Assembly (NCBI GenBank): GCA_964016885.1
Contig: OZ024744.1
Coordinates: 76,322,001-76,386,000 of the forward strand
Reading direction: 5' to 3'
DNA from: Eledone cirrhosa
Taxonomy: Eukaryota
Length of the DNA: 64,000 bases
Shown: positions 1 to 62,089 of the stretch, one piece after another
How the letters are laid out: each line of letters opens with the position of its first letter
Position numbering within the stretch: position 1 is the stretch's first letter
Position numbers and translations under genes: made by a program
The notes under the pieces: model-generated
Database searches by the model: none
Told to the model about the DNA's origin: nothing
The model's input: only the letters and a program-made list of their open reading frames with translations

Positions 1-1729
1 GTCCCTCTTGTACGTATTGACTCTCGAGCCATTACTGCACAAACTGGAGACGTTGAGGGGAGTCCCGCGCGAACTAGGATGCGGAAGATCCGTGTCAGCA
101 TATGCGGACGATGTCACCGTAGTGGTGTCGAACGCCAAACACATCGAGGCGATCGGCACTACAATAAGAGAATACGAAGCGGTGACAGGAGCAATGATCA
201 ACCAGGAAAAGTCAGTGGGCCTGCAGCTCGGCACCTGGAGAGGCAGGTCCATGCCGTCCAACAGCGTCGTCGGGCGCTGGACGGACGGACCGGTTAAATT
301 ACTAGGGGTCTGGTTCGGTCCGGACCTCCAGACGGACAAAAACTGGGACGAGGTGACGAGCAGGGTGGCTTCTCTCACCCAGAAATGGGCGGAGAGGAAG
401 CTATCCCTGAAAGGTCGAGCGGAGGTGGCTAACGCGTACATCGCGTCTGTCATCTGCTACCGCCTAACCGTCGTACCTTGTCCTAAGCCTCGCCTGACTG
501 CGCTGGAGCGTTTGCTCTTTCGCTTTTTGTGGAAGGGACGTGCTCCGATGGTCAGGCGGTCCATCTGTTGTCAACACCCGCTACGTGGAGGGCTGGGCAT
601 GCCGTGGCTGATGATGCGCAGGCACGCGCTCAGGCTACGACATCTCCACCTCTTCCTCGACGGTGATCAGGTGTGGTCGCCGTTTGCTAGACGCGTTTTT
701 CCCCAGCTCGTTTCCTTGACGGAGCTGCAGTCCTGGGTCAAGCGAAGACCGAGAGGGAGCGCCTGGAGACTGGAATGTCTTCAGGCGCTCACAGCCCTCG
801 ACCAATCGGGCAATGTGATCGGTGGAAACTCCACCTCGGCGTTCTATAGAGGATTAGTGGAGGGGAAGAGCGACGACGTACTTGGGGAAACTCTAGGCGT
901 CGACGAAAATCAACTAGCCAATCTCTTCGGAAGAACTTTCGGGCCAGGGCCTATGGACAACTTCCAGAAATCTCTGGCCTGGCAGTGCTACCGAGGAGCC
1001 TTGCCAGTTCGGGATAAACTCTACAGGCATGGAGGTGCCGTCAGCCGGGCATGTCCGAGATGCGCGCAGGGCGACGAAACCGTCCTGCACGCACTCGTCC
1101 AGTGTCCGAAAATTGCTGACTTGTGGGTTTATGTCGAACACCTGCTGTCGCGTTTAGGACGGACCCAGCTATCATCTGAGTCTATCGTGAGGATTGCCCC
1201 GCCCTCCTCCTTTAGCCGGGAAGGGCAGGCAGTTTTTATCTGTCTGGTGGCCATGGCGAAAGAGATAGTATGGTGGACACGTTTGAAAGGGCTGAAGACG
1301 AGCACTTACCTCTTCGGTGATGCTCTGATTGACTTTTTCAAATTTCATTTGAAAAGGAAAATCAGAGTAGAGAAGGAAGTGCTCTCTTCCCAGCATTTTG
1401 TTGAAAGATGGGTGAGAGAAGCAAGAATGGCCCGAGTGAATGGGCCGACTCTGAGTATATATCTGTAAACTAAAGGTGGAAAACTGGGAGAGGGCACTTG
1501 CCTTGGTGGTCAGGGTCATTGTGGCTTTTTACTGGGCTTTCTCCACAAATGTCCCTCCGAAGTCTCCCCCCTATTGGGGAATTTTTCATTGTTATTTTCA
1601 TTGTTATTTTTGTTACATCCTCTATTTTTGTTTTTTTTACACGCAGAAATGCCCATTTGTACCGTCCTGCATTGTCCTGCACTGTCCTTAATGTCTACTT
1701 TATGTAAACCCTTGTGGTTAATAAAGAAA

Positions 1730-25354: not shown

Positions 25355-27268
25355 ATGAACGCTGCGTCCAACGATAATGGTGGTGGAGAGGCGGTAAGAC
25401 TACAAAGCTCGCAGTCAACAACGTCTTCTTCACTAGATACTATAGAGATGGAAAGACAAAATGAAAATAAAAAAACGAATTCACATCCAAACAACACAAA
25501 TGACACCAAACAGCTCAATGACAACAAAAATAACAGCAAAACCAATAATGATGATAAAAGCAACAATGATAACAACAACAAAGAAAAAAATAAAGACAAC
25601 GCCAATAACACCAGCATCAAAGACAACAACAACACCAAGGAAAATACGGATGATACCAACATCGGTGACAACAAGAATAACAACAAGAATAACAACAATA
25701 ATGACAACACCACCAATACGGATTCCACAAAGAAACCAAAAATCTCCTTTGCGGAGAAAGTTCAAAAGAAAGAACAATTGATATATCTCGACATAACAAA
25801 TGCTGAACACCTTTTAAAGGACGCTAAGAGATATGTCACCTTCGAAAAAAATGGTGCTTTCAGCATCAATTCTCCGGTAGAAATTCGCAAGGAAACTGCT
25901 CTCAAAACGATAGTTTTTAGGACAGTTTCCAATTCTACCCGAAAACCAGTCCAATTGTCACAGAAAGATATTGAACTGGTTTTCAAATATTCAATGAATG
26001 ATATTGCATTCATTCAAAGAAGCAAACTTTTTGGGAGTATTTCGGTACTGATGAAGGATCAATTGACGGCCCAAAATTACTCTGTGTCGCCAATTGTATC
26101 CAACCTGTACACCTTTTTCCCTACATACATGGGAAAAAGGACACAAAAGATCAGAATCACAAGTGTCACACCAAAGGTGAACATATGGTGGATACTGTGC
26201 GGCTTCATCAATTTTGATGAAGACAGAATACTGTCAGTAGGCAAGTCCCCCAGAGATGTATTCAATGGGACTAGCATTGAAGTTCTGGTGCAAATGAGCC
26301 CAGAGCGAATAGCTATGATCCCACAGCGTGTACTCCTGGACGGACTTACCTACATAAACCTTTCGGTTGAGGGTAGGTGGCCTTCATGTTACCATTGCTT
26401 TAGCAGGGGTCACCTGAGGGCTTCCTGTCCTAAACTAATGAACCAAAAAAAGGCTCTTCTGCCGACACCCATCAAAACAACACAACCACCAACACCACCA
26501 CAACAACAACACCAACACACAAAAATAACCACAACAAACACAGTCCCACCCAACCCCACTCCACCTAAAACCACTGCAAAATCACATACAGACACAACAG
26601 CTCCCCAAGACATACCCCTCCCCAATCACACAGACGATACAACAGATGAGGCTATCTCGCCATCACCCAGTGAAGACGAGGGAGAACCCCATCGCTCGAA
26701 AAGAAAGAAAAGACATCACAAAAGCAAAAAACCAGCAAACACTACCACAAACATACAACCACCAACACAAACAACAAAAATATCACAAACCAAACCCCCA
26801 CCTCCTGAAAACAAAATACCTACAACAAAACGAAAGCACACACAAGAACTACAGACAAAAACAAACACAACACAAGAAAATTACACTTACACTTACATAA
26901 ACACTGAAAACAAAACACTAATGGAGACCATCACGAACGACCCTTCGGTTTTCACCGAAGGGAAAACTTTCGCCCACTCTATAAAAAATAGCAAAAAACT
27001 GAACCTAAGACTGATTAGGGTCCCTATACAAACTTATAGGTCCCTAAAAGAAACATTTGAGAAGGATGTGGGGAATTCCTGCGTGAAACCACTCAACCGC
27101 GTCCTTCTCAAATGCCTCCCCACCCCAGACACCCCCATTCCACCAGACCCCACCCCACCAAACATCTGCGTCCCCACCCCGCCGGAAACCACCACCCATC
27201 CAGACAACCCCTCCAACACCCCCATGGAAATCGTGCGGCCTGGTCCCCAGGAGGCGAAGGGTGAGTGA
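25355..27268 (+). CDS. Tx1 ORF1 (Asn-rich N-terminus, CCHC zinc knuckle, Pro/Thr-rich region)
   Basis: 637-aa intact ORF with CYHCFSRGHLRASC, immediately upstream of ORF2. Confidence 0.92.
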   Translation: MNAASNDNGGGEAVRLQSSQSTTSSSLDTIEMERQNENKKTNSHPNNTNDTKQLNDNKNNSKTNNDDKSNNDNNNKEKNKDNANNTSIKDNNNTKENTDDTNIGDNKNNNKNNNNNDNTTNTDSTKKPKISFAEKVQKKEQLIYLDITNAEHLLKDAKRYVTFEKNGAFSINSPVEIRKETALKTIVFRTVSNSTRKPVQLSQKDIELVFKYSMNDIAFIQRSKLFGSISVLMKDQLTAQNYSVSPIVSNLYTFFPTYMGKRTQKIRITSVTPKVNIWWILCGFINFDEDRILSVGKSPRDVFNGTSIEVLVQMSPERIAMIPQRVLLDGLTYINLSVEGRWPSCYHCFSRGHLRASCPKLMNQKKALLPTPIKTTQPPTPPQQQHQHTKITTTNTVPPNPTPPKTTAKSHTDTTAPQDIPLPNHTDDTTDEAISPSPSEDEGEPHRSKRKKRHHKSKKPANTTTNIQPPTQTTKISQTKPPPPENKIPTTKRKHTQELQTKTNTTQENYTYTYINTENKTLMETITNDPSVFTEGKTFAHSIKNSKKLNLRLIRVPIQTYRSLKETFEKDVGNSCVKPLNRVLLKCLPTPDTPIPPDPTPPNICVPTPPETTTHPDNPSNTPMEIVRPGPQEAKGE

Positions 27269-27301
27269 TCTCTTTTCCTCTTTTAACTTTTCAGCACCAA
27301 C

Positions 27302-38118: not shown

Positions 38119-39428
38119 ACGTGGAAGGAAGGTGCTATCTCTGTGTGCAGAAGGGTCACCTCAGGGACTTCTGCCCGTAGAAGACAGCCAAGAAGAGCCC
38201 TCCCCCTCCTTCTGACGCCTGATCTGCTGCTACCAAAAGCAGGGCAGGCAAAAGAGGAAGTAGACCTTTCCATGGGGAGTAGGAGGGAAACGTCCGTGGC
38301 ACCCATACCAATGCCACGGACAACTAAAGCAGCGGCAGCAGTGGCGACAGCAGTGGCGACAGCAGTGGCGGCAACACCAACATCGCAGTAGCTACACCGG
38401 CGGCAAAATCGCCGGAGCGGGCTCCACTACCACCACCAACAGCAGTGCGGCTCATACCCCTCCCAGACGCTACGGAATCCGATATGGAGTATGAGGCAGG
38501 GGGGAAGTGGCAAACGGTCTGCCACAGAAAACAAAAAAGGAAAAAAACCCTTAGCTTCACCTTCCAAAAGCGAAGGCAAACGAAGATGGGTAAAGGCTGC
38601 AAAGAGACTTGCAGCAAAACCACCACTATCTCCATCACCACCACAAGCATCACCACCAACAACAACCACACCACCACCAGCATCACCTAAAACACCAACA
38701 TCGCAAACACAACAAAACACACACAAATAACAGCAACAACAAGAAAACAGCAACAAAGTCGCCCTCCTCCCAAAAAGTACACAGCCATAAACATGGCAAA
38801 TAAAGAACTCTTACAACATATAAATCAGCACACAGACATCACAGAAAAAAACTACTACACCCCACCAACACCAAGAACTCTCCCGGCATACATAAACATC
38901 ATTGAAATCAAAATAGAACAGTACAAACTTTTAAAACAAAAATTCCCCAACGCAGTTGGAGACTTCAGAGGGTCAGTTACCAAGAGGATATACACTGACA
39001 TCCTCTTGGAAACCCCCATGACCAGTCAAAGGGACGGTTCTACTGTCCCTTCACCACACGATCAAGATAAGAGACCCTTTCTCACTTGCCCCGTTTCTCA
39101 TCCAACATGGCCGTACTTAGAATAGGGTCATCTTGGAAGCAGGGTCACATGCTCATAGACCTCAGGTCACTAAACATAGATGTGGTGGCCATCAGCGAGA
39201 GCAGAATCTCCGAAGCACGAACCTTCGCACCGATCTTCGGCGGCTAAGATGTATACACATCTCCCAGCCGTCCAGGATCGGGGGGAGGGGTGGCAGTGCT
39301 TTTTCGGAGAGGCTTGGATCCCGCCGTATGGGCCATCTTCCTGGACCCAGAAGGTAAGTCGGTGGTGCTAGACGTAACCGGCAGCGAAGGCAATGCTTTC
39401 AGGCTAGTAGACGTCTACGCCCCAAGTG
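38119..39428 (+). mobile_element. Degenerate Tx1 fragment: ORF1 3' half (knuckle) + start of APE
   Basis: KGHLRDFCP knuckle remnant; KFPNAVGDFRG; atggccgtacttagaatagg APE start. Confidence 0.88.
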
Positions 39429-42400
39429 AGAGGGCTCCACTACCACCACCAACAACCGTGGAGCACATACCCCTTCCAGACGCCACGAAATCCGACATGG
39501 AGTCTGAGGCGGGAGTGAAGTGGCAAACGGTCTGCCACAAAAAACAAAGCCCCTTAGCTTCACCCTCCAAAAGCGAAGGCACACAAAGATTGGTAAAAGC
39601 TGCAAGCAGACTTGCACACAAGCACCACCGCCAACAACAACCACACCACCACCAGCATCACCAAAAACACCAACAACGCAAACAAAACAAAACACACACA
39701 CACCAAACAGCAACAGGAAGAAAACAGCAACAAAATGCCCCCTCCCCCAAAAAATACACAGCCATAAACATGGCAAAAAAAGAATTCATACAATATATAA
39801 AGCAGCACACAGACATCACAGAAAAAAGAAATACTACACCCCACCAACACCAAGAACTCTCCCGACAAACATAAGCATCATTGATATCAAAATAGAACAG
39901 TACAAACTTTTAAAACAAAAATTCCCCAACGCAGTTGGAGACTTCAGAGGGTCGGTTACCAAGAGGATATACACTGACATCCTCTTGGAAACCCCATGAC
40001 CAGTCAAAGGGTCGCTTCTACTGTCCCTTCACCACACGGTGAAGGTAAGTGACCCTTTCTCACTTGCCCCGTTTCTCATCCAACATGGCGTACTTAGAAT
40101 AGGCAGTATAAATGCACTTGGCCTGGTGTCATCTTGGAAGCAGGGTCACCTGCTCATAGACCTCAGGTCACTAAATATAGATGTGGTGGCCATCAGCGAG
40201 AGCAGAATCTCCGAAGCACGAGCCTTCGCACCGATCTTCGGCGGCTACGATGTATACGCACTTCCCAGCCGTCCAGGATCGGGGGGAGGGGTGGCAGTAC
40301 TTTTTCGGAGAGGCTTGGATCTCGCCGTATGGGCCATCTTCCTGGACTCAGAAGGTAAGTCGGTGGTGCTAGCCGTAACCGGCAGCGAAGGCAATGCTTT
40401 CTTTCAGGCTAGTAGACGTCTACGCCCCAACTGAGGCAGGACGGCCAGATTTCTTCAGACGTCTATAGACCTTTCTTGGAACGTCCGCTCTTTAGTGTTA
40501 GTGGGAAACTGGAACGGTATCTTAGATGCACGCTGGGATTATGTGGGGCTAATAAACAGGGCAGTAGGGTGTAAAAGCCTCAACAACCTGCTCGGACGTT
40601 TTGAACTGTCTGACAGGTATAGTTTGGATTATTCGAATGTGCCAATGTGGACATAGGCAAACTGCATCGGGTCATCGAGATCGTATTTAGATAGGGTATT
40701 CTGTAGGGAAACAGATAAGGCTAGCGTAGGTTGTCCACAATTTAAAGTAGTCGACTACACGGACCACAAATTTGTGATCTCTGAAGTTGACTGAGATAGA
40801 CTCCATAGGCAAGGGCCCAGCTACTGGAAGCTGAACGCATCATTTCCGGCGCGCAAAGCTTAGAGACCGGATTAGCGTATTAGTTAAGTGTGCGTTGACG
40901 AGTGCGATCGACAACAACAGGAGGTGGTTTACCCAGAAAATGGCTATTAGAGTAGAATCGATAACGTTTAGCAATGGAGTAGTGATAGAGGAAAATAGAG
41001 TAGATGGAGAGTTACTTAGAAATCTAGAAGAGGCGTTTAGGAAGGCATTGCAACCGACGTGCTTGCGGTGAGATTGGCACTCGACCAATTCTTCGACGCA
41101 AAGCATGATGGCTGCGTGTCAGAGCAAGGGCGCGGGTGGTGGAAGCACGACGTGGCAACAAGTCCACAATTCGGTCTTTGCATGATCAAAACGGGCGCAT
41201 GTTGCTCGTACCCGAGCAGATGTATGCGGCTTTTCAACAGCACTTTGCTCAATTGTTCGGGAGCGGCGGCTGGTCGGATCGGAGTATGGACTTCGGTGCA
41301 TACTTCGACGGACTGCCGCGGCTCTCGACGACCGCAGTGCAGTGCTGGAAAAAGCCGATAACAGCAGATGAAAAACGGGAAGCGATGTCTGACTGCACGA
41401 GAGGTAAATCGCCAGGTTTGGATGGTCTGCCCTACGAGCTTTATGCATTTATGCCAGACTTGTTCGGTGACCTCTTGGCAGACGTCTAATGCAACTGGCA
41501 GCAGAACGGGAGCATTCCTAGTTTTGTGAGCAGGGGAGCGGTGGCGTTGCTGAGAAAAAACCTGAACATGGGGTTATGTTATCGAAAGTTTCAGGCCCAT
41601 AGCTCTGCTAAACGCAGAGTTCAAGGTTTTGTCCAAGGTGTTAGCAACGAGGTTGGCGCTTGTCGTCAAGGGTCTGGTGGGAAAGGCGCAGACATTCCGG
41701 CCAGATCCATACACGACAACCTCCACCCATGCGATACATCATAGAGAGGGTGGTTAAGGAACCTGGCACGGGTGGGGCCCTTATCAACTTGGATCAATCC
41801 AAAGCATTCGATAGGGTCGACCATCGGTACCTGTCTGCGGTCCTTAAGGCAGCCGGTTTCGGTCCCGTTTTCAGGGGTTGGATCGCAGCGATGTCTGCTC
41901 AGTTGTGAGGGTGAACGGTCTCCTGTCGCAGCCGTTCAGCATCATGCACTCGGTCCCCCAGGATGCGGGAAATCCGAGTCGGCTTACGCCAACGACGTCG
42001 CCGTGGTGGTGTCGAGCACCAGACACGTCCAGATGCTCGGTACCGCTCTCAAGGAATACGAAGCGGTGACAGGTGCAAAGATAAACCAGGAATAGTCGGT
42101 GGGCTTGCAGCTCGGCACCTGGCGAGGCAAGTCCATGACGTCCGAGAGCGTCATGGGGCGTTGGACGGACGGACCGGTTAAATTGCTTGGGGTCTAGTTC
42201 GTACCGGACCTCAAGATGGAGAAAAGCTGGAACGAGGTGACAAGCATGGTGGCCTCCTTCACCCAGAAATGGGCCGAGAGGAAGCTGTCCTTGAAAGGCC
42301 GGGCGGAGGTGGCGAATGCGTACATCGCTCCCGTCATCTGCTACCGCCTCACCTTCGTCTCTTGCTCCGGCCCAACTCTCACCAAAATGGAGCGCCTCGT

Positions 42401-44530: not shown

Positions 44531-44747
44531 TGAATGCCATGGTTGACGGAGGCTCGGCTCTGTAAGGTATAGTAATTTTTAACCGTTAAAACAATTGTAA
44601 ATTGTTTAAAACTTGAACCAAATTGTTGATAAAGACACCCTCCTCCTCGTGAGAGGGGTCTTTCTGTCCGTTATTTGGCCCTTCGGGGTTAAATAACCAG
44701 TTATTGGGGTTTTGTACCCAAAATTTCATTTTAAACAAAAAAACAAC

Positions 44748-46845
44748 ATGGCTACGAAAAAGAAATTTCATACGTCACTCCCACTCATTCCGTCTTCTTC
44801 TTCCTCAATCATCACTACAGCAGAGAGAAGATTGTCTCTCTCCCTCCCTTCTTTAAATGTGTCTCTCTCCCTCCCTTCTCTTTCGCAAGTGACGAAAGAA
44901 AAGAAAAGTCTCGTGCAAAGCGTGCAAGGTTTCTCCACGACGACGACGACAGCGACGAAACAGGTGTGCGGGAAATACGAAAACCCAGTTCATTCGTCTG
45001 ACGTCAGGAATAATAGCAGTAGCAGCCGTAATAATAACAGCAACAGTGACAATGAAAACAACAGTAGCAGCCGCAACAGCATCACCAGCAGCATAAACAA
45101 CAACAGCATTAGCAGCAGCAACACCAACAACAACCACAGCAACAGCGGCGGAGGCAGTAGTCGTAGTACCTGCAGCAACAACAAAAGTACCAGCAGCTCT
45201 GACGACAACAACAACAGCAGAGAAAAACCAATCTCATTTGCAGGTATTGCGAAAAACTTGGAAACAATCCTCATAACAAATGAGGAATTAGAGGAAGCGA
45301 AGAAGATGGTGACAAAGAACGGACACCGAGCAATCTGCAAGGCAGCGGAAAAATTTTTCGAAACCCAAGAGCACTGTACGGTCACCTACCGTACAGTAAG
45401 TACAAAATCCCGTAGGGTGGAAAGAGCCACAGAGGCCCAAATACAAAAAGCCTTGGGGTCTGTGTGGCAGCGGAAAACGCACATCACTCGAGGCAAAAAA
45501 TATGCCACCGTAGACGTACTTTTTGCCACACCCCAGGAGGCAAAGGCCCAATCAGTAGTGACCCTAAGGAGCGAGGAAATGGTGTTGGTGCCCTCCTACT
45601 GCGGGCAAAAAAGTGTGAGGGTCAAACTGACCCACGTCCCCCCCCGGAATGACCCCTTCTTGGCTGGCCGCGTCTGTCCTCGTCGGAATCGAGGACAAAA
45701 CAACTGTACTGCAAGTACAGAAAAAAGTAAGAGAAGATTGGGTCGGCTCCTCCATTGAGATGCTAATCCAAACCAACCAGGAGTGCATCGAAGCTATCCC
45801 GGATGTGATAGACTTCGATAACGGCACTCAACTGCCCATAAGTGTTGAGGGCAAACGCCCGAAATGCTTTCGCTGTGGATCGAAGACTCACCTCAGGGCC
45901 TTCTGCAACGAGAAGACCCTGAGAAAGGAGAAAACCCCCCTCCTTCCGAATCCGGCTCCACGGCTACCAGCAACAGGACAAGCGGCAACCAGGAACGATA
46001 GGTCCGTGGCACCCATATCCACTCCACGGAAATCAAAAACAGCAGCAGCAGTGGAAATATTAACAACAACAACAGCAATACCAAATGCAGCTGCAACAGA
46101 GACTCCAGTGCAAACATCACCAACAACAACAAGTGAAAGAGTGGAGCTGGTACCCCTCCCCGACCTCACAGAATCAGACATGGAGTGTGAGGTGGGAGAG
46201 GGATGGCAAAAGGTCGCAAGAAGGCACAAACGCAGAAGCAGCGCATCGTCGCCTTTGAAAAGGGAGGAAAGAAATGAGAAAAGGGTAAAGTCTACTGCAA
46301 AGAGACCCACAGCAGCAACACCACCAACACCATCACCACCCACACCAGCACCACCATCACCACCGGCGACAACCCCGCCGCCAATAACACCTTCAACACC
46401 ACCACCACAAGTACCAACATCGCAAACACAACAACAAAACACACACACCCAGCAACAACGACAAGAAAATAGCAGAACCACACCCCACCCCCAGAAAAAC
46501 AAATGCACGGCAATAAAAACACACAACAAGAAACTAATGACTTACATAATTGAACACACAGACATTTCACAACAGGACTACATAATACCAGCACCAATCA
46601 AAACGCCAACTAACATAAGACTGCTAAAAATAGCACAGAAACAATACACAAACATTAAAACGAAATTCCCCAACGCAGTTGGTGATTTCAGGGACCTAGG
46701 AGGAACCATCAATCGAAGAGTATATTCAGACATTCTCTTAGAAGAGCCGACGACCAGCCGAAGGGACGATTCAACGGTCCCTTCACCAGACGATCAAGTG
46801 AAAAGGGATGTAAAAACCATCCCTCCTCTACCAAAAGTACGGTAA
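44748..46845 (+). CDS. Tx1-A ORF1 (Ser/Asn-rich N-terminus, CCHC knuckle), one frameshift in the C run ~45640
   Basis: Joins ORFs 44712..45758 and 45649..46845. CFRCGSKTHLRAFC. Confidence 0.88.
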
Positions 46846-46880
46846 GTGGTCTTTCCCATCTTTTCCACTCTATTTTAAAC

Positions 46881-49800
46881 ATGACCTCACTCAGAATAGG
46901 CAGCATAAATGCGCGTGGCTTGGGGTCGTCATGGAAGCAGGGTCACCTGCTCAACGACCTCAGGTCACTAAACATAGATGTAGTGGCCATCAGCGAGACC
47001 AGAATCTCCGAAGCATGGGCCTTCGCACCGATCTTCGGCGGCTACGATGTGTACGCATCTCCCAGCCGTCCTAGATCGGGTGGAGGAGTTGCTGTGCTTT
47101 TTCGGAGAGGTTTGGATCTCGCCATACGGGCCATCTTCCTGGACCCAGAGGGTAAGCTGGTGGTGCTGGACGTGACCAGCGGAGACGGGCAAGCTTTCAG
47201 GCTAGTGGCCGTCTATGCCCCGACAGGAGCAGGGCGGCCTGATTTCTTCCGGCGTCTGGAGACCTTTCTTGGAACGTCCCGCTCTTTAGTGTTAGTGGGC
47301 GACTGGAACGGGATCTTAGATGCACGCTGGGACTGTGTGGGATTAGCGGATAGGGGTGGAGGGTGCAAGAGCCTCACCAACCTGCTCAGGCGTTTTTGAA
47401 CTGTCTGACAGGTACCGATTGGATTTCCCGAATGTGCCAATGTGGACTTGGACAAACCGCATAGGGTCATCCAGATCATATCTAGATAGAGTATTTTGTA
47501 GGGAAATAGATAGGTCTAGCATAGGCTGTCCACAATTCAAGATAGTCAGCTACACGGACCACAAATTCGTGACCTGTGTGCTTGACTTAGATAGGCTTCA
47601 TAGACGAGGACCCGGCTACTGGAAGCTAAACGCGTCCTTACCAGCGCGCAAGGCCTACAGAGACCGGATTAGCGAACTAGTTAAGCGGGCGTTGACGGGG
47701 GCCATCGTCAACAACAAGTGGTGGTTTGCTCTGAAAAGAGCGATTAGAATAGAATCGATTAGGTTTAGTAAGGCTTTAACAATAGAGAAAAATAGAGCAG
47801 AGGGAGAACTAGTTAAAAAATTAGACGAGGCGCTTAGCAAAGGCATCGCGACCGACGTGCTTGCGGCGAAATTGGCCCTTGACCAATTCTTCAATGCAAA
47901 GCACGAAGGCTGCGTTGTCAGAGCTAGGGTGCGTGCTCTCAGACACGAGGGGACGAAAGCCGTTCAATGGGCCCGAGTGGCGGAGGCGCGTCGTGGCAAC
48001 AAAGCCACGATCCGGTCTTTGGTGGACCACGACGGGCGCATGCTACTCGATCCCGGACAAATGTGTGAAGCTTTTCAGCGACACTTCGCTCAGCTGTTCG
48101 GGGGCAGCGGGGGGCCGGGTAGAGGGATGGACTTTAGTGTCTACCTCGACGGACTGCCGCGGCTCTCGGCCACTGAGGCGAAGTGTTGCGAAAAGCCGAT
48201 AACAGCCGCTGAAGTAAGGGAGGCAATGACTGGCTGCACAAGGGGTAAATCGCCTGGTTTGGATGGTCTGCCCTATGAACTTTACGTACAGATGCCAGAC
48301 TTGTTCGGAGGCCTCTTGGCGGACGTCTACTGCAACTGGCAACAGAACGGGAGAATTCCCAGTTCTGTGAGCCGAGGAGCGGTGGCACTGCTGAGAAAGG
48401 ATCCGAACAAGGGGGATAACATAGACAATTTCCGGCCCATAACTCTGCTAAACACAGAGTTTAAGATTTTGACCAAGGTGCTAGCAAAGAGGTTGGCGCT
48501 TGTCGTTGGTGGTCTGGTGGGAGAGGCGCAGACATGCGCCATTCCCGACAGATCCATCCACGACAACCTCCACCTCATGCGATACATCGTAGAGAGGGTA
48601 GCTAGGGAACCTGGCACGGGTGGGTCCTTGATCAATTTAGATCAGTCGAAAGCTTTCGATAGGGTCGACCATCGTTACCTAGCGGCAGTCCTGAGGGCGG
48701 CTGGCTTTGGGCCCGTCTTCAGAGGCTGGATCGCTGCCATGCACAGCGACATCTGCTCTGTGGTGAGAGTGAACGGTCACCTGTCGGAACCGTTCAACAT
48801 CATGCGCTCGGTCCGCCAAGGATGTCCCCTCTCGTCCCTCTTGTACGTATTGACTCTCGAGCCATTACTGCACAAACTGGAGACGTTGAGGGGAGTCCCG
48901 CGCGAACTAGGATGCGGAAGATCCGTGTCAGCATATGCGGACGATGTCACCGTAGTGGTGTCGAACGCCAAACACATCGAGGCGATCGGTACTACACTAA
49001 GAGAATACGAAGCGGTGACAGGAGCAATGATCAACCAGGAAAAGTCAGTGGGCCTGCAGCTCGGCACCTGGAGAGGCAGGTCCATGCCGTCCAACAGCGT
49101 CGTCGGGCGCTGGACGGACGGACCGGTTAAATTGCTAGGGGTCTGGTTCGGTCCGGACCTCCAGACGGACAAAAACTGGGACGAGGTGACGAGCAGGGTG
49201 GCTTCTCTCACCCAGAAATGGGCGGAGAGGAAGCTATCCCTGAAAGGTCGAGCGGAGGTGGCTAACGCGTACATCGCGTCTGTCATCTGCTACCGCCTAA
49301 CCGTCGTACCTTGTCCTAAGCCTCGCCTGACTGCGCTGGAGCGTTTGCTCTTTCGCTTTTTGTGGAAGGGACGTGCTCCGATGGTCAGGCGGTCCATCTG
49401 TTGTCAACACCCGCTACGTGGAGGGCTGGGCATGCCGTGGCTGATGATGCGCAGGCACGCGCTCAGGCTACGACATCTCCACCTCTTCCTCGACGGTGAT
49501 CAGGTGTGGTCGCCGTTTGCTAGACGCGTTTTTCCCCAGCTCGTTTCCTTGACGGAGCTGCAGTCCTGGGTCAAGCGAAGACCGAGAGGGAGCGCCTGGA
49601 GACTGGAATGTCTTCAGGCGCTCACAGCCCTCGACCAATCGGGCAATGTGATCGGTGGAAACTCCACCTCGGCGTTCTATAGAGGATTAGTGGAGGGGAA
49701 GAGCGACGACGTACTTGGGGAAACTCTAGGCGTCGACGAAAATCAACTAGCCAATCTCTTCGGAAGAACTTTCGGGCCGGGGCCTATGGACAACTTCCAG

Positions 49801-50301
49801 AAATCTCTGGCCTGGCAGTGCTACCGAGGAGCCTTGCCAGTTCGGGATAAACTCTACAGGCATGGAGGTGCCGTCAGCCGGGCATGTCCGAGATGCGCGC
49901 AGGGCGACGAAACCGTCCTGCACGCACTCGTCCAGTGTCCGAAAATTGCTGACTTGTGGGTTTATGTCGAACACCTGCTGTCGCGTTTAGGACGGATCCA
50001 GCTATCATCTGAGTCTATCGTGAGGATTGCCCCGCCCTCCTCCTTTAGCCGGGAAGGGCAGGCAGTTTTTATCTGTCTGGTGGCCATGGCGAAAGAGATA
50101 GTATGGTGGACACGTTTGAAAGGGCTGAAGACGAGCACTTACCTCTTCGGTGATGCTCTGATTGACTTTTTCAAATTTCATTTGAAAAGGAAAATCAGAG
50201 TAGAGAAGGAAGTGCTCTCTTCCCAGCATTTTGTTGAAAGATGGGTGAGAGAAGCAAGAATGGCCCGAGTGAATGGGCCGACTCTGAGTATATATCTGTA
50301 A
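46881..50301 (+). CDS. Tx1-A ORF2 APE-RT-zf, one frameshift in the T run ~47395
   Basis: Joins ORFs 46881..47399 and 47356..50301. All catalytic motifs are present. Confidence 0.93.
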
Positions 50302-50579
50302 ACTAAAGGTGGAAAACTGGGAGAGGGCACTTGCCTTGGTGGTCAGGGTCATTGTGGCTTTTTACTGGGCTTTCTCCACAAATGTCCCTCCGAAGTCTCC
50401 CCCCTATTGGGGAATTTTTCATTGTTATTTTCATTGTTATTTTTGTTACATCCTCTGTTTTTGTTTTTTTACACGCAGAAATGCCCATTTGTACCGTCCT
50501 GCATTGTCCTGCACTGTCCTTAATGTCTACTTTATGTAAACCCTTGTGGTTAATAAAGAAATCATTATTATTATCATCA

Positions 50580-50617
<38 letters not shown>

Positions 50618-51095: not shown

Positions 51096-54000
51096 GATCC
51101 GAAAACACACTTTGCGGGATTCACTCGAACGCGTTAATCCTGGAGTCGGCAAAATAAAAGGTTCAGGTGAAAAATAACCTACACAACAAATACTGACCGA
51201 TAGTAAGGAGCCAATGCTCAGAATTGTACTGAAGGAGAGGACAATAGACGAGGGGATGTCCAAGGAGGAAATAACAACAAGGAGAAAGAGCAGCCACAAC
51301 CCAAACCAACGGAATCGTTGAGGGTTAAAGGCCTAGGTGTGTCGTTTGTGGCGAAGGAACCAACCTAAAGGCTTTCTGCCCTCAGGCTAAAAAGTTGAGA
51401 CCACCTCTCCTACCCACTCGTGTGACTCAACCATCAACACCACCAGCAGCAGAAATGGCAGCAACAACTGTAGCAGCAACAACCCCAGCAACAGTAGAAA
51501 AACCAACACCACCAACACCCACCGCGCCAGAATTAGCACCAGCGCCTCCACCATCCACCACGCCACAACCCAAACAAACGCCTGTGGAGGATTTTCCACT
51601 CCCCAACTTATCCCAACTGGAGACAGATTGTGACAATGAGGAGGAGTGGGAAACTGTATCAGGAAAAAAGAAAAAAAAAAAGAAAAAATCCTCTTCCTTC
51701 ACCCTCCAAAAACAAAATGCAGGGGGGAAACAAATAAACTAACAAACAAAAAGGTTAAGACAGCTATGCCACCACCCACACCAGGATCACCAGACCAATC
51801 ACGACAAACACCAACACCTTCACCATCATTAACCCCAACACCACCATCACTCACCAAAAAGCGAAACAGAAACAAACCCACAACAAACGCAAACAAAACA
51901 AAACAACCAAAACGATACACACTACACAGCAATAAATTTGATCGGTAGAGGGTCGGACGCCATGTTTCCAGCATAGTTATGGCCCCTTACGATCTGAGTT
52001 CAAATCCCGCCGAGGTTGACTTTGCCTTTCATCCTTACGGGGTCGATAAAATAAAGTACCAGTAATGCACTGGGTAATTGCTGGCCTTGTGCCTGAAGTA
52101 GAAACAATTAAATTTGAACAAAAACCAATTACTACACTACATCCAACACAACACAAGCATCACAAAAAAGCCTACACAACACCTAAAAAATTCACACCAC
52201 CCCCACACATACAAATCACTCGCATCACACAGTAAATGTACAGGACACTAAAACTAAAATCCCCAAAGACATCGGAGACTTCCGATAAACACTCTCCATG
52301 AAGATTTATAAGGACATCCTTCCAGGAGAGACCACAAGCAGTGAAAAGGATGGAAAAACCATAATTCCTCTACTAGATGTGAGGTAAGTGGTCTTTCCCA
52401 TCTTTTTCCACTCCTTTTCAACATGACCTCACTCAGAATAGGCAGCATAAATGCGCGTGGCTTGGGGTCGTCATGGAAGCAGGGCCACCTGCTCAACGAC
52501 ATCAGGTCACTAAACATAGATGTGGCGGCCATCAGCGAGACTAGAATCCCCGAAGCACGAGCCTTCGCACCGATCTTCGGCAGCTACGATGTGTACTGAT
52601 TTCCCAGCCGTCCTGGATCGAGGGAGGAATTGCTGTGCTTTTTCGGAGAGGTTTGGATCTCGCCATACGCGCCATCTTCCTGGACCCAGAAGGTAAGTTG
52701 GTGGAGCTTGACGTGACTACGGAGACGGGCAAGCTTTCAGGCTAATGGCCGTCTATGTCCCGACAGGAGCAGGGCGGCCTGATTTCTTCCGGCGTCTGGA
52801 GACCCTTCTTGGAACATCCCGCTCTTTAGTCTTAGTGTACGACTGGAACGGGATCTTAGATGCACGATGGGACTGTGTGGGATTAGCGGATAGGGGAGGA
52901 GGGTGTAAAAGCCTCGCAAACCTGCTCTGACGGTTTCAACTGTCTGACAGGTACCGTCGGGATTTCCCGAATGTGCCAATGTGGACTTGGACAAACCGCA
53001 TAGGGTCATCCAGATCATATCTAGATAGGGTATTGTGTAGGGAAATAGATAGATCAAGCATAGGCTGTCCACATTTCAAAATTTTCGACTACACGGAGCA
53101 CAAATTCGTGATCTGTGAAGTTGACTTAGATAGGCTTCATAGACAGGGCCCCGGCTACTGGAAGCTAAACGCATCATTAACAGCACGCACGGCCTACAGT
53201 GACAGGATTAGCGAACTAGTTAAGCGGGCGTTGACGAGGGCCATGGTCAACAATAAATGGTGGTTTGCTCTGAAAAGAGCGATTAGAATAGAGTCCATTG
53301 GGTTTAGTAAGGCTTAAGCAATAGAGAAAAATAGAGCAGAGGGAGAATTAGGTAGAAAATTAGACGAGGCGCTTAGTAAAGGCCGACGTACTTGCGGCGA
53401 AATTGCCCCTTGACCAATTCTTGAATGCTAAGCACGAAGGCTGTGTTGTCAGAGATAGGATGCGTGCTCTCAGACACGAGGGGACGAAAGCCGTTCAATG
53501 GGCCCGAGTGGGGAGGTGTGTCGTGGCAACAAAGCCACGATCCGGTCTTTGGTGGACCACGACGGGCGCATGCTACTCGATCCCTGGCAAATGAATGAAG
53601 CTTTTCAGCGACACTTCGCTCAGCTGTTCGGGGGCAGCGACGAGCCGGATCGAGGGATGGAGTTTAGTGCCTACCTCGACGGACTGCCGCGGCTCTCGTC
53701 CACTGAGGCGGAGTGTTGCGAAAAGCCGATAACAGCCGCTGAAGTACGGAAGGCAATGACTGGCTGCACAAGGGGTAAACCGCCTGGTTTGGATGGTCTG
53801 CCCTGTGAACTTTACGTACAGATGCTAGACCTGTTCGGAGGCCTCTTGGCAACGTCTACTGCAACTGGCAAAAGAATGGGAGAATTCTCAGCTCTGTGAG
53901 CCGAGAAGCGGTGGCGTTGCTGAGAACAAAGGTGATAACAGATAATTTCAGGCCCATTACTCTGCTAAACACAGAGTTCAAGATTTTGGTCATGGTGCTA

Positions 54001-55250
54001 GCAAAGAGGTTGGCGCTTTTCGTTGGTAGTCTGGTGGGAGAGGCGCAGACATGCGCCATTCCAGACAGATCCATCCACGACAACTTTCACCTCATGCGAT
54101 ACATCGTAGAGAGGGTAGCTAGAGAACCTGGCCCGGGTGAGTCCTTGATCAATTTAGATCAGTCGAAAGCTTTCGATAGGGTCGACCATCGTTATCTGGC
54201 TGCAGTACTGAGGGCGGCTGGCTTTGGGCCCGTCTTTAGAGGCTGGATCGCTGCCATGCACAGCGACACCTGCTCTGTGTTGAGAGTGAACAGTCACCTT
54301 TCGCAACCGTTCAACATCATGCGCTCGGTCCGCCAAGGATGTCCCCTCTCGTCTCTTTTGTACGTATTGACTCTCGAGCCATTACTACACAAACTGGAGA
54401 CGCTGAGGAGGTCCCGCGCGAACTAGGATACGGAAGATCCGTGTCAGCATACGCGGACGATGTCACCGTAGTGGTGTCGAAACCAAACACATTGAGGCAA
54501 TCTGCACTACACTAAGAGAATACGAGGCGGTGACAGGAGCAATGATCAACCAGGAAAAGTCGGTGGGCCTGCAGTTCGCCACCTGGAGAGGCAGGTCCAT
54601 GCCGCCCAACAACGTCATCAGGCGCTGGTTGGACGGACCGGTTAAATTGCTAGGTGCCTGGTTCGGTCCGGACCGCCAGATGGACCAAAACGGGGACGAG
54701 GTGACGAGCAGGGTGGCTTCTCTCACTCAGAAATGGGCAGATAGGAAGCTATCCCTGAAAGGTCGAGCGGAGGTGGCGAGGCAGTCCATATGCTGTCAAC
54801 ACCCGCTACGTTGAGGGCTGGGAATGCCGTGGTTGATGATGCGCAGAAACGCGCTTAGGCTACGACATCTCCACCGCTTCCTCGACGGTGATCAGGTGTG
54901 GCCTCCGTTTGCTAGACTCGTCTTTCCCCAGCTCGTCTCCTTGACGGAGCTGCAGTCCTGGGTCAAGCGAAGACCGAGAGGGAGCGCTTGGAGACTGGAA
55001 TGACTTCAGGCGCTTACAGCCCTCGACCAGTCGGGCAATGTGATCTGTGGAAACTCCACATTGGCGTTCTATAGATGATTAGTGGGGGAGAAGAGCGACG
55101 ATGTACTTGGGTAAACTCTAGGCGTCGACAAAAATCAACTAGCAAATCTCCTCGGAAGAAATTTCGGGCCGGGGCCTATGGACAACTTTCAGAAATCCCT
55201 GGCCTGGCAGTGCTACCGAGGATCTTTGCCAGTTCGGGATAAACTCTACA
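51096..55250 (+). mobile_element. Degenerate Tx1: divergent ORF1 remnant + A-type ORF2, 3'-truncated; SINE inserted at ~51940-52110
   Basis: ORF2 from 52423 parallels 46881 onward with stops. ORF1 differs from the 44748 type. Confidence 0.9.
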
Positions 55251-58200
55251 CCCTCATCCTCATGAGAGGAGTCTTTATGCCCGTTATTTGGCCCTTCGGG
55301 GTTAAATAACCAGTTATTGGGGATTTGAGCCCAATATTCATTTAAAAAACAACAAAACATGGCTACAAAAATGAATTTTCAGAAGTCACTCCCACTCTTT
55401 CCCTCTTCTTCCTCAATCGTCATTATATCAGAGAGAAGATTGTCTCTTCCCTCCTTTCGCTAAATGTGGTGTCGCCTCTTTCGCAAGCGACGCCATTAAA
55501 GAAAAAAATATATAGTTTCTGGTAGCTTTCACCAAGAGAACGTGCATACCGTGGAACATTTCTCCACGACCACGACAACGACGAAAAATGTATGTGGTAA
55601 ATACGGAAAGCCATTTCATTCGTCTGACGTCATGAAGAATAGCAGCAGCAGCCGTAATAACAGCAGCAGCAGCAACAGTGGCGAGAAAAATACTAGTAGC
55701 AGCCGCAACAACATCAGCAGCAGCATAAATAACAACAGCAGCAGCAACAGCAACAACAACAGCAGCAGCACCGACAGCAACAACAGCAACAAGAACAATA
55801 GCAACAGCGTCGGAGGCGGTCGTAGTACCAGCAGCAACAACAAAAGTAACAGCAGCTCTGACGACAACATCAACAAGAAGAAAGAAAAACCAATCTCGTT
55901 TGCAGATATCGCAAAGAACCTGGAAACCATCCTTATAACAAATGAGGAATTACAGGAAGCAAAGAAGATGGTGACGAAAACCGGACACCAAGCAATCTGC
56001 AAGGCAGCCGAAGAATTTTTCGAAACACAACAGCACTGTACGGTCACGTAACGTACAGTAAGCACAAAATCACGTAGGGTTGAAAGAGCCACAGAGGCTC
56101 AAATCCAAAAAAACCTTAGGGTCTGTGTGGCAGCGGAAAACGCATATCACCCGAGGCAAGACGTAGGCCACCGTGGACGTGCTTTTTGCCACACCCCAGG
56201 AGGCAAAGGCTCAATCCTTAGTGACCCTACGGAGCGAGGAAATGGTGTTGGTGCTCTCCTACTGCGGGCAAAAAATTGTGAGGGTCAAACTGACCCAAGT
56301 CCCCCCCCACCACCACCACCCCGGATGGCCCCTTCTTAGCTGGCCGCGTCTGTCCTCGTCGGAATCGAGGACAAAACAACCGTACTGCAAGTACAGACAA
56401 AAGTACGAGAAGATTGGGTCGGCGCCTCCATTGAGATGTTAATTCAAACCAACCAGGAGTGGTTCGAAGCTATCCCGGATGTGATAGACTTCGATAACGG
56501 CACTCAACTTCCCACAAGTGTTGAGGGCAAACGCCCGAAATGCTTTCGCTGCGGGTCGAAGACTCACCTCAGGGCCTTCTGCAATGAGAAGACGCTGAGA
56601 AAGGAGAAAACACCCCTCCTTCTGAAACCGGCTCCACTGCTACCAGCAACAGGAAAGGCGGCAAGCAGGAAGTATAGGTGCGTGGCACCCATACCACGCC
56701 ACGGAAATCAAGAACAGCAGCAGCAGTGGAAGTATTAACAACAACAACTGTAAAACCAACTGCAGCTGCAACAGAGACTCCACTGCAACCATCACCAACA
56801 AGAACAAGTGAAAGAGTGGAGCTGGTACCCTTCCCCGACCTCACAGAATTGGACATGGAGTGTGAGGTGGGAGAGGGATGGCAAAAGGTCGCAAGAAGCA
56901 CAAATGCAGAAGCAGCGCATCGTCGCCTTCGGATAGGGAGGGAAGAGATGAGAAAAGTGTGAAGACTACTGCAAAGAGACTTACAGCAGCAAAACCACCA
57001 ACGCCATCACCACCCACACTAGCACTACCATCACCACCGGCGGCAACCCCACCGCCAACAACAACACCTTCAACAACACCACCACAAGCACCAACATCGC
57101 AAACACAACAACAAAACACACACATCCAGCAACAACGACAAGAAAATAGCAAAACCACCCCCACGCCCCAAAAAGATATGCACAGCAATAAATACACACA
57201 ACAAGAAACTAATGACTTACATAATTGAACACACAGACATTTCACAGCACGACTACATAATACCAGCACCAATCAAAACACCAACGAACATAAGACTGGT
57301 AAGAATATCACAGAATCAATACACTAACATTAAAATGAAGTTCCCCAACGCAGTTGGTGATTTCAGAGACCTAGGAGGGACACTCAACCGGAGAGTATAC
57401 TCCGATATACTTACAGAAGAGCCGACGACCAGCCGAAGGGACGGTTCAACGGTCCCTTCACCAGTCGAACAAGGTAAGTGACACTTTCTCACTTGCCCCG
57501 TTCCTCACCCAACATGGCCATATTCAGGATCGGAAGTGTAAACGTGCGTGGCTTGAGCTCGGTTTGGAAGCAGGGTCACTTGCTTAACGACCTCAGGTCA
57601 CTAAACATAGATGTGGTGGCCATCAGCGAGACGAGAATCTCCGAAACGCAAGCTTTCGCACCGATCTTCGGTTACGAGGTGTACGCATCTCCCAGCCGTC
57701 CGGGAGCGGGGCCGAAGTGGCTGTGTTGTTTCGGGAAGGCTTCGGTCTCGCCATACGGACCATCTTCCTGGACACAGAAGGTAAGTCGGTGGTGCTGGAC
57801 GTGAACGGCACCGAAGGCAACGCTTTCAGGCTAGTAGCCGTCTATGCCCCGACTGGTACAGGACGGCCAGATTTCTTCGGACGTCTAGAGACCTTTCTGG
57901 GAAGGTCACGTTCTTTAGTCTTAGTGGGCGACTGGAACGGTATCTTGGATGCACGCTGGGATTGTGTGGGGCTAGTGGATAAGAGACCTGCTCAGACATT
58001 TTGAACTGTCTGACAGGTATCGACTGGATCACACGAATGTGCCAATGTGAACATGGATAAACCGCATCGGGTCATCCAGATCGTATCTCGATAGGGTATT
58101 CTGCAGAGAACTAGATAAGGCTAGTATAGGTTGTCCACATTTTAAAATAGTCAACTTCACAGACCAGAAATTCATGATCTGTGAGATCGACATAGACAGA

Positions 58201-61172
58201 CTTCAAAGACAAGGACCTGGTTACTGGAAGCTGAACGCGCCTTTCGCTGCGCGCAAAGCCTACATAGACCGGATTACCGTATTATTTAACCGGGCGTTGA
58301 CGGGAGTGGTCGTCAACAACAGGTGGTGGTTTGCACTGAAAGAGGCAATTAAAGTAGAATCGATTAAGTTTAGCAAAGGAGTAGTGACAGAGGAAAATAG
58401 AGTAGAGGGAGAGCTAGTCAGAAAACTAGAAGAGGCGTTTAGGACAGGCATCGCAACCGACGTGCTTGCGGCAAGATTGGCACTCGACCAATTCTTCACC
58501 GCAAAACACGAAGGCTGCGTTGTCAGAGTTTGAGCGCGTGCTCTGAAACACGAGGGGACAAAGCTGTCTAATGGGCTCGGGTGGCAGAGGCGCGACGTGG
58601 CATCAAAGCCACCATTCGGTCTTTGTCTGACCAAAACGGGCGCGTGTTGCTCGAACCCGAGCAGATGTGTGAGGCTTTTCAACAGCACTTTCCTGAATTG
58701 TTCGGGAGCGGAGGCGGGCTGGATCGGGGTATGAAGTTCACTGCATACCTCTACGGACTGCCTCGGCTCTCAACGACCGCAGCACAGTGTTGCGAAAAGC
58801 CAATAACAGCCGGTGAAATACGGGAAGCGATGGCCATCTGCACGAGGGGTAATTCGCAAGGTTTGGATGGTCTGCCCTACGGCTTTATGCATTTAAGCCA
58901 GACTTGTTCGGTGACCTCTTGGCAGACGTCTACTGCAACTGGCAGCAGAACGGGAGCATTCCCAGTTTTATGAGCAGGGCAGCGGTGGAGCTGCTGAGAA
59001 AAGACCCGAACAAGGGGGATGTAATCGAAAGTCTCAGGCCCATAACCCTGCTAAACACAGAGTTCAAGATTTTGGCCAAGGTGTTAGTAACGAGGTTGGC
59101 GCTTGTCGTCAAGGGTCTGGTGTGAGTGGCGCAGACATGCGTCATTCCGGCCAGATCCATACACGACAACCTCCCCCTCATACGATACATCATAGAGAGG
59201 GTGGTTAAGGAACCTGGAACGGGTGGGGCCCTGATCAACTTGGATCAATCCAAAGCATTCGATAGGGTCGACCATCGGTACCTGGCGGCGGTCTTCGAGG
59301 CAGCCGGTTTCGGACCCGTTTTCAGAGGTTAGATCGCTGCGATGTACATAGATATTGCTCAGTTGCGAGGGTGAACGGTCACCTGTCGCAGCCGTTCAGC
59401 ATCATGCACTCGGTTCGCCAGGGTTGTCCCTTCTCGTCCCTCTTGTAGGTATTGGCTTTCGAGCCGTTACTACACAAACTGGATGTGATGAGTGGCGTCC
59501 CACGCCAACTAGGATGCGAGAAATCCGAGTCGGCTTACCGACGACGTCACCGTGGTGGTGTCGAGCACCAGACACGTCCAGATGCTCGGCACCGCTCTCA
59601 AGGAATACGAAGCGGTGACAGGACCAAAGATAAACCAGGAAAAGTCGGTGGGCTTGCAGCTCGGCACCTGGCGAGGCAAGTCCATGCCGTCCGACAGCGT
59701 CGTGGGGCGTTGGACGGACCGACCGGTTAAATTGCTCGGGGTCTGGTTCGGACCGGACCTCAAGATGGAGAAAAACTGGAACGAGATGACGAGCATGGTG
59801 GCCTCCTTCACCCAGAAATGGGCCGAGAGGAAGCTGTTACTGATAGGCTGGGCGGAGGTGGAGAATGCGTACATCGCATCTGTCATCTGCAACCGCCTCA
59901 TCTTCGTCCCTTGCCCCGGCCCAACTCTCACCAAAATGGAGCGCCTCCTCTTCCGCCTTTTGTGGAAGGGACGCGCTCCTATGGTCAGACGATCCATCTG
60001 CTGTCAACACCCGTTGCGTGGAGGACTGGGCATGCCATGGCTGATGATGCGCAAACATGCGCTGAGGCTGCGACATCTCTGGTGCTTCGTTGACGGTGAA
60101 CAGGTTTGGTCACCGTTCGCCAGGCACGTTTTCCCACAGCTCGTCTCCCTAACGGAACTGCAGTCCTAGGTCACGAAAAGACCAGGAGATAGCGCTTGGA
60201 AACTGGAATCTCTCAATGCGCTCATTGCCCTCTGCCAGCTGGGCACCAGTATTGGTGGAATATCCACCTCGGCATTCTATAGAGGACTAGTGGATGGGAA
60301 GTGCGACGACGTTCTCGGAGAGATCCTGGGCGTCGAAGAAAATCCGCTGTTTGCTCTCTTCCGGAGAACTTTCAGCCCAGGGCCTATGGATAACTTCCAG
60401 TAATCCCTGACCTGGCAGTGCTTCCGGTGAGCTTTGCTGGTTCGAGATAAGCTCTACAGGCACGTAAGTGCCGTCATCCGAGATTGTCCGAGATGCGCGC
60501 AGAGCGACGAAGCCGTCGTGCACGCACTCGTTCAGTGCCCGACCATTGCTGACTTGTGGAACTATGTCGAACAGTTGCTGTCGCGTGTAGGACCGATCCG
60601 GTTATCGACTGAGTCCATTGTGCAGATGGTCTCGCCGTCTTCCTTCGAGGAGGAAGGGCAGGCAGTTTTCAACTGCCTGGTGGCCATGGCGAAAGAGATT
60701 GTGTGGTGGACAAGGTTGAAAGGGTTAAAGACAGACACTTTCCTCTTCGGCGAATCCCTGATATACTTTTTCAAGTTTCACTTGAAGAGGAAAATCAGGG
60801 TGGAGAGGCAAGTGCTGCCTTCTAACAAGTTTGTTGAAAGGTGGGTGAATGTAGCGAGAATGGTCCGAGTGAACGGGACCGCTCTGAATATATGCCTGTA
60901 GTTTGAGAAATGGAAAACTTGAGAGAGGGCGCTTGACCTGGTGGTCAGGGTGGCCGTGGTCATTTGTGTGGTTTTTGCCACGAGTAACCCTCGGAGGTTT
61001 CCTCTCTATTGGGGAAATTGGAGTTTTTAATTGTTTCAATTTTCATTTTTATTGTTTATATATATATATATATGTTTCTGTCTTTTTTTTCTTTTCTATA
61101 TAAATTATAAAAATCTTTTCACGCACAAAACCCACATCGTACAGTCCTGTACCGTCCTGTGCCGTCTGTAAT
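55251..61172 (+). mobile_element. Degenerate near-full-length Tx1: A-like 5'UTR/ORF1 + C-type ORF2/3'UTR
   Basis: 5'UTR and ORF1 match 44635-46795. ORF2 (from 57514) and 3'UTR match 40085-43460. Confidence 0.92.
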
Positions 61173-61174
61173 CC

Positions 61175-62089
61175 TTGGGCAATGTGATCGGTGGAAACTC
61201 CACCTTTGCGTTCTATAGAGGATTAGTGGAGGAGAAGAGCGACGACGTACTTAGGGAAACTTTAGGCGTCGACGAAAATCAACTAGCCAATCTCTTCGGA
61301 AGAACTTTCGGACCGGGGACTATGGACAACTTCCAGAAATTCCTGGCCTGGCAGTGCTACCGAGGAGCTTTGCCAGTTCGGGATAAACTCTACAGGCAAG
61401 GAGGTGCCGTCAGCCGGGCATGTCCGAGATGCGCGCAGGGCGACGAAACCGTCCTGCACGCACTCGTCCAGTGTCCGAGCATTGCTGACTTGTGGGTTTA
61501 TGTCGAACACCTGCTGTCGCGTGTAGGACGGATCCAGCTATCAGCTGAGTCCATCGTGAGGATTGCCCCGCCCTCTTCCTTTAGCCGGGAAGGGCAGGCA
61601 GTTTTTATCTGTCTGGTGGCCATGGCGAAAGAGATAGTATGGTGGACACGTTTGAAAGGGCTGAAGACGAGCACTTACCTCTTCAGTGATGCCATGATTA
61701 ACTTTTTCAAATTTCATTTGAAAAGGAAAATCAGGGTAGAGGGGGAAGTGCTCTCTTCCCAGCATTTTGTTGAGAGATGGGTGAGAGAGGCAAGAATGGC
61801 CCGAGTGAATGGGCCTACTCTGAGTATGTGTCTGTAAATTAAAGGTGGAAAACTGGGAGAGGGCACTTGCCCTGGTGGTCAGGGTCACTGTGGCTTTTTA
61901 ATGGGCTTTCTCCACGAATGTCCCTCGGAGGTCTCCCCCCTATTGGGGAATTTTTTCATTGTTCTATTATTACATCCTCTGTTTCTTGTTTTTTTTTACA
62001 CGCAGAAATGCCCTTTTGTACCGTCCTGTCTTGTCCTGTACTGTCCTTAATGTCTACTTTTTGTAAACCCTTGTGGTTAATAAAGAAAG

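Follow-up and report, generated by a model that had tools for sequence, protein, structure and literature searches.

The analysed window, 64,000 nucleotides (nt) of the forward strand of contig OZ024744.1 of Eledone cirrhosa (assembly GCA_964016885.1, positions 76,322,001 to 76,386,000), contains a full-length long interspersed nuclear element (LINE) with two open reading frames (ORFs), together with parts of related copies (Table 1; positions are those of the window). The element represents a chimeric family, here called H1, in which the 5′ untranslated region (UTR) and ORF1 are of lineage B type while the spacer, ORF2 and 3′UTR are of lineage A type. In ORF2, the Pfam domains PF03372, PF00078 and PF13966 were all found above the cut-off, corresponding to an APE-type endonuclease, a reverse transcriptase and a C-terminal zinc-binding domain. 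The Pfam search of the window element gave no match for ORF1; the motif CX2CX4HX4C was found in both ORF1s, and the ORF1 of lineage C had an Atlas match to zf-CCHC clusters at 0.92. The subject of this study is a 5′ splice donor that lies on the ORF1 stop codon, and at which chimeric families of these elements are joined.

Table 1. Features of the H1 element and of its relatives in the window.
Feature	Position	Strand	Basis or remark
Full-length two-ORF LINE, chimeric family H1	44635..50600	+	ends in (ATT)n
ORF1 with CCHC knuckle	44748..46845	+	1-nt frameshift near 45638 in the window copy
Fossil junction 46798|46799, B exon end (donor −1) to post-CAG A sequence	46790..46806	+	homology and genome matches
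5′ splice donor ACG|GTAAGT on the ORF1 stop TAA	46839..46847	+	sequence
5′ strand of predicted long-range helix (donor and pyrimidine spacer)	46842..46869	+	folding
ORF2: endonuclease, reverse transcriptase, zf-RVT	46881..50301	+	1-nt frameshift near 47393
Candidate internal acceptor, phase 2, common to five lineages	49659..49682	+	crude score
3′ strand of predicted helix, directly after the ORF2 stop	50307..50335	+	the first 7 intron bases of the donor are all paired with it
3′UTR acceptor-like site (T run, CAG)	50455..50478	+	sequence, crude score
Putative terminal exon, 19-codon extension and AATAAA	50479..50557	+	sequence
Donor, lineage A copy, phase 2	52381..52389	+	sequence
Lineage B copy, nearest relative in the window of the H1 5′ parent	55248..61056	+	homology
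Intact donor of the lineage B copy, phase 1	57471..57479	+	sequence
Donor, degenerate lineage B copy	40042..40050	+	sequence
Donor, lineage C copy, phase 1	27258..27266	+	sequence
3′UTR acceptor-like site, second lineage A 3′ end	1623..1646	+	sequence
3′UTR acceptor-like site, third lineage A 3′ end	61982..62005	+	sequence

A first-pass annotation of the window had reported consensus donors at five ORF1 ends, and all five were recovered, at 46842, 52384, 40045, 57474 and 27261. The overlap with the stop codon that it described was also found, in phase 2 at 46842 and 52384 (TAA at +2 to +4) and in phase 1 at 57474 and 27261 (TGA at +6 to +8). The ORF1 ends had been called poorly related, and between lineages they are indeed mostly unalignable, but the five sites come from only three lineages and are not five independent cases; the ORF1 sequences preceding 46842 and 57474 share 90% identity. 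On its own the motif GGTRAGT shows no clear enrichment in the window (22 matches versus 15.1 ± 3.5 in shuffles, with 22 reached by 6 of 100 shuffles), and it is its position that constitutes the non-random signal. The pattern used for the ORF2 start had 7,135 matches in the genome, and in 28 of 30 sampled ORF1/ORF2 junctions G|GTRAGT was located 38–45 nt before the ORF2 ATG, the two exceptions being a GTAATT in lineage E and one mutated site. Six lineages carry the donor, among them F (882 genome matches) and E (69 matches), and it occurs in both codon phases, phase 2 (Arg-stop) being the most frequent and phase 1 being found in lineage B and in the C subfamily of the window. When one copy from each of seven lineages was anchored on the donor GT, which makes +1 and +2 identical by construction, positions −1, +1, +2, +4 and +6 were identical in all seven and positions −2, +3, +5 and +7 in six of them, a level reached by 1 of 51 other positions. 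The identity of ORF2 DNA between lineages goes down to 64–71%, and synonymous sites are unsaturated, as 195 of 573 invariant codons are identical across five lineages. The donor is real and conserved. Copies with a changed donor region also occur: two lineage C copies (G000:C1:29216580 and C1:29252567) have lost the donor GT in a short deletion, and three others (L427, G000:C6:20620595 and L457) have an inversion near the donor and spacer.

Outside this genome, a distant family with 40% identity in the ORF2 protein was found in host-like contigs of a bacterial assembly; its tandem LINE arrays, although filed as a bacterial genome, are likely to be host DNA. In this family AAG|GTAAGT stands one base past the ORF1 stop in 30 of 30 matches. 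The check named by the first-pass annotation, conservation of GTRAGT in a wider family alignment, thus came out positive in the survey, in the 40%-identity relative and across the change of codon phase. An acceptor in the 3′UTR of the distant family ranks first or second of about 130 in the five copies scored. The same family has a second donor 14 nt past the ORF2 stop, with an acceptor approximately 250 nt after it (L495:6468-6740, loci L479–L535), and these could delimit a possible 3′UTR intron that shares its acceptor with the ORF1 donor. The arrangement was not found in metagenomic L1-like loci of 22–37% identity: an ORF2 start was detectable in 41 and 38 of these had room upstream, five with GTRAG within 110 nt, while none of the 38 showed this overlap of a donor with the called ORF1 stop. 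The donor is therefore not general to L1/Tx1-like elements. No relative was found in the viral contigs searched.

Chimeric families joined at the donor suggest that it is used, and we regard its use as probable. Up to 46798, which corresponds to position −1 of the B donor, the H1 element matches the B copy at 55248 with 90% identity (mostly 85–94% in 200-nt windows before 46799), and from 46799 on it is 94–97.5% identical to the dominant lineage A, whose sequence here follows a CAG. Counted from the respective donors, the homology to B stops at −44 in the H1 element and at −1 in the B copy. The H1 junction has 2,331 exact genome matches, that is at least 2,331 copies, and H1 forms without a later extra base exist. 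In family H2 the C exon end is joined to lineage F after a CAG (19 of 100 matches listed), and in H3 the C exon end is joined after another CAG, 76 nt upstream (3 of 100 matches listed); in both cases the parent has the CAG. In all three multi-copy types, donor −1 is thus followed by the base that comes next to a CAG in the parent, in agreement with the GT-AG rule, and as these types duplicate homologous sequence they are not in-register crossings. The joins land 23–76 nt before the donor of the partner, and a landing close before that donor is what exon definition predicts. When searches were anchored on the 3′ partner and blind to the 5′ partner, using the last 39–57 nt of ORF1 of lineages A (100 of 135 matches), F (18), D (5) and B (11), H1 and H2 were the only inter-family chimeras obtained.

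Tandem arrangements from which such joins could arise are present in the genome. Of 17 lineage A copies aligned to locus L460, 14 start in an ATT run and the other three are 5′-truncated. In five of 18 cases a lineage A copy immediately follows the 3′ end of another element, one of them B-type; a B 3′ end directly precedes an A element at L464, and a C 3′ end precedes an F element at L358. Insertion into ATT runs and the abutting copies mean that substrates for read-through exist. As H2 and H3 also follow GT-AG, the spliceosome probably cuts the donor in RNA that reads through tandem copies, and judged from their junctions the hybrids are likely to be splice products. Three further junctions at the donor (L308, L453 and L454) and three near the H1 acceptor (L447, L448 and L451) were rejected as splice products, being deletions or one base off, and so was L455, where the sequence runs into satellite.

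The first-pass annotation had also proposed that the donor is joined to an acceptor in the 3′UTR, removing ORF2 altogether. The acceptor-like sites ending at 50478, 1646 and 62005 were confirmed, and the 19-residue extension of ORF1 is open and stops short of the AATAAA at 50552. By a home-made crude count, not a trained model, the lineage A site is the best in that lineage, ranking first of 124 YAG sites; it has 6,551 exact genome matches and is common to lineage E. In lineage B the 3′UTR AGs are different from those of lineage A, strong in one variant and weaker otherwise. The 3′ exon is 73–74 nt long in 84 of 97 copies and of other lengths in 13, hence the extension peptide varies to some extent. 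Three candidates were tried and rejected as splice copies, two in which the inside of ORF2 is joined to the base following the acceptor (L045 and L059) and one short deletion (L051); since the window copy has no GT at the left break, they were taken to be deletions.

Folding of the spacer against a 30-nt segment after the ORF2 stop, with shuffled spacers as the control, predicted a long-range helix. In the window element the predicted duplex has an energy of −36.8 kcal/mol, and 0 of 500 shuffles were as stable; it beats the shuffles in all nine copies folded (0–18 of 500 as stable). The segment after the ORF2 stop was the best or second-best partner window in seven of eight elements. The helix is predicted to pair 6–7 donor bases in A, B, B2 and D, and 3–4 in C and F. 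Short inverted repeats past the ORF2 stop, at 50323–50340 and in homologues, extend into the anti-donor strand, and the long-range helix could face competition from them.

To the reading that a functional donor makes a minor ORF1-only RNA, restrained by the helix and with the hybrids as a by-product, we assign a probability of about 50%. The donor is kept at the end of ORF1 regardless of phase or spacer, and U1 would bind it in the nascent RNA. The strand that follows the ORF2 stop is transcribed ahead of the lineage A acceptor, by about 145 nt, and is predicted to pair with the spacer and donor, by which most of the RNA would stay unspliced and available for retrotransposition. RNA escaping this restraint would be spliced to an acceptor beyond ORF2, located in the 3′UTR in A, E and the distant family, leaving ORF1 whole and its stop in or beside the last exon. 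In read-through RNA of head-to-tail copies the donor would sometimes be joined to a CAG before the next donor, and the product, a full-length element with a new 5′UTR and ORF1, could retrotranspose and found a family. More tentatively, and somewhat short of even odds, these elements may represent a LINE lineage, present in at least two host assemblies, that balances the output of ORF1 against that of ORF2 by a built-in intron around ORF2, here with an RNA clamp hiding the donor, and that has in the donor itself a swapping joint by which tandem copies exchange promoter and ORF1 and give rise to successful new families.

Several results weigh against the reading of a helix-restrained ORF1-only RNA, and the splicing interpretation of the first-pass annotation can be regarded as partly supported. 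The search for retroposed copies with the 46841–50479 junction, which that annotation had suggested, gave no direct genome match. Of the 138 lineage A 3′ ends that lack CAG, 101 were examined and none has the ORF1-only junction; the other 37 are all preceded by TG or TAG. The junction was also absent from exon ends with a non-donor behind them in A (78 + 57), B (55 + 3) and C/D (100 + 51) and from 69 E ends; these donor-side searches covered lineages A, B, C/D and E, leaving out the exon ends of F, and their patterns ended in the ambiguity letter D, some with one H or V, with about one-fifth of sites missed per such letter. An RNA lacking ORF2 would move only in trans, and the lack of an ORF1-only genomic copy is for this reason weak evidence. 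A look-up of sequencing runs for this stretch listed none recorded as RNA; X1 (with little coverage), X2, X5, X7 and the small set X6 are contigs whose kind is not recorded. A contig of 1,412 nt in X6 runs through the donor without a break, and the 15 joints shown of 25 include none that starts at the donor. A comparable 3′UTR AG is missing from lineages C, D and F; these lineages keep the T-rich stretch without it (C and D also keep an ACACG motif), so this stretch is not maintained for splicing alone. The predicted helix pairs no donor bases in C2 and E, cognate pairs are the best in their column for only four of eight lineages, indicating partial specificity, and no such helix is predicted for the distant family. 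Finally, AG microhomology of 2 nt is common to all three hybrid junctions, the acceptor used in H1 is weak (6 of 16 positions are pyrimidines, and another AG lies 3 nt upstream), the single-copy junctions L308, L453 and L454 at or near the donor are non-canonical and do not follow GT-AG, and the closeness of the joins to the partner's donor could instead be caused by selection for an intact spacer.

The microhomology belongs to a different explanation, in which the motif is an RNA helix or a stop/re-initiation signal that meters ORF2 translation, and the hybrids arose by template jumps of the reverse transcriptase at AG. The pairing of donor bases predicted for A, B, B2 and D is in line with this, as are the three single copies with non-canonical deletions and an in-register C/F recombinant, seen in 1 of 100 matches listed. 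On the other hand, the distant family keeps the donor without the helix, and both inter-family chimeras from the blind searches begin at the donor. Moreover, three of three multi-copy junctions use CAG, for which the chance is about 0.04 when estimated from the YAG share of AG sites in the last 100 nt (2/12, 2/4 and 4/9). We consider this explanation improbable.

The absence of a spliced genomic copy, and the persistence of the donor even in lineages without a 3′UTR acceptor, would be expected if the donor were a docking site for U1 that is not normally spliced, suppressing cryptic polyadenylation in the A-rich ORF1 or controlling nuclear fate, with the hybrids as rare accidents. In seven of nine elements poly(A) hexamers are present in the 600 nt that precede the donor, but by an estimate made without shuffling their number is about that expected by chance for A-rich sequence. 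In human immunodeficiency virus 1 a downstream donor reportedly suppresses an upstream poly(A) site. In the Arabidopsis element EVD, U1 guards the full-length RNA in such a role (PMC5580714). U1 docking leaves the strong 3′UTR acceptors of A, E and the distant family unexplained, and we find it unlikely. In the form offered by the first-pass annotation, protection against premature polyadenylation, there would be little downstream for it to protect, as in six of eight elements no canonical poly(A) signal lies between the donor and the terminal signal.

Two other uses of the donor would produce an ORF1-ORF2 fusion. Splicing to the internal acceptor at 49682 would, in the phase-2 lineages, fuse ORF1 in frame with the last 206 residues of ORF2. 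By the crude score this acceptor is the best of 64 AG sites common to five lineages, and the window around it has six of seven synonymous codons identical; given the background of 195 of 573, however, about one window like this would occur in ORF2 anyway. The phase-1 lineages would be out of frame and the donor-side searches gave no copy with the junction, making this use very unlikely. Equally doubtful is a mini-intron of 34–61 nt from the donor to the first AG, fusing ORF1 to ORF2. This would keep the frame in lineage A and in one variant each of D and C, but not in B, E, the C copy of the window and the other D variant. An RNA encoding the enzyme should leave copies, and none were found in the donor-side searches.

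Signals of a similar kind were also seen at the borders of ORF2. The ORF2 stop of C2 and F (L347, L357, L358 and L359) reads TAG|GTGA, which is donor-like, with a pyrimidine-rich stretch before it. In lineages C and E a good acceptor lies 5–7 nt before the ORF2 ATG (window 27261–27294; L155; L140), and it could serve to make an ORF2 message from an upstream donor.

LINEs need far more ORF1 than ORF2 protein, a ratio thought to be managed at translation, and LINE families have repeatedly gained new promoters and ORF1s by unknown routes. If the proposed splice is real, its conservation would mean that a solution of long terminal repeat (LTR) elements has been reused by a LINE. The exact GT-AG junctions in a family of more than 2,000 copies suggest that one route to new promoters and ORF1s is splicing between neighbouring elements. 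In the Ty1/copia elements, Drosophila copia and Arabidopsis EVD, a gag-only RNA is made by splicing; the donor is conserved and lies where the structural gene ends, and the copia intron spans the whole enzyme region, as proposed here for ORF2 (PMC5580714). Copia and EVD are single-ORF LTR elements whose spliced RNA has been demonstrated, whereas here the element is a two-ORF LINE, the splice is deduced from sequence and the donor-masking helix is a prediction. The hybrids resemble SVA_F1 (MAST2) and the chimpanzee STK40-SVA, subfamilies founded by an upstream exon spliced to an acceptor of the element; in SVA a host exon was joined to a non-autonomous element, while here the promoter and ORF1 of one LINE would be joined to the ORF2 of another (PMC6139936). 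Human L1 SpIREs are likewise spliced LINE RNAs kept as genomic copies, but they use donors in the 5′UTR, involve one element and are described as dead ends (PMC5860796), in contrast to the amplified H1 family with its at least 2,331 copies. Our literature search, with most subscription papers outside its reach, found no description of a donor on a LINE ORF1 stop or of LINE-LINE splice hybrids.

The assignment to the Tx1 clade was the label of the first-pass annotation; no named Tx1 reference was among the 120 homologues listed or the Atlas matches. A CCHC knuckle in ORF1 is a feature of the Tx1 clade, and the ORF2 domains, the knuckle and the targets of the present elements are consistent with membership. 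Tx1 elements target microsatellites (PMC4494074), and the Tx1 families Kibi and Koshi share with the present elements two ORFs, an ORF2 with endonuclease and reverse transcriptase, and insertion into simple repeats. The targets differ, being (ATT)n here, with (TATC)n-like tails in lineages C, D and F, and the accessible text on Kibi and Koshi mentions no splice signal (PMC4494074). Recent L1-Tx1 activity has been reported in Octopus vulgaris, with splicing unmentioned in the accessible part of that report (PMC13282606).

Across the window, the LINE pieces between 1 and 62135 are nearly all on the plus strand, nested or head to tail, and genome-wide a spacing of 6.0 kb between copies is common. 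Within the degenerate lineage B copy, 38415–40435 comprises a tandem duplication of about 1 kb, with a mutated donor near 39067.

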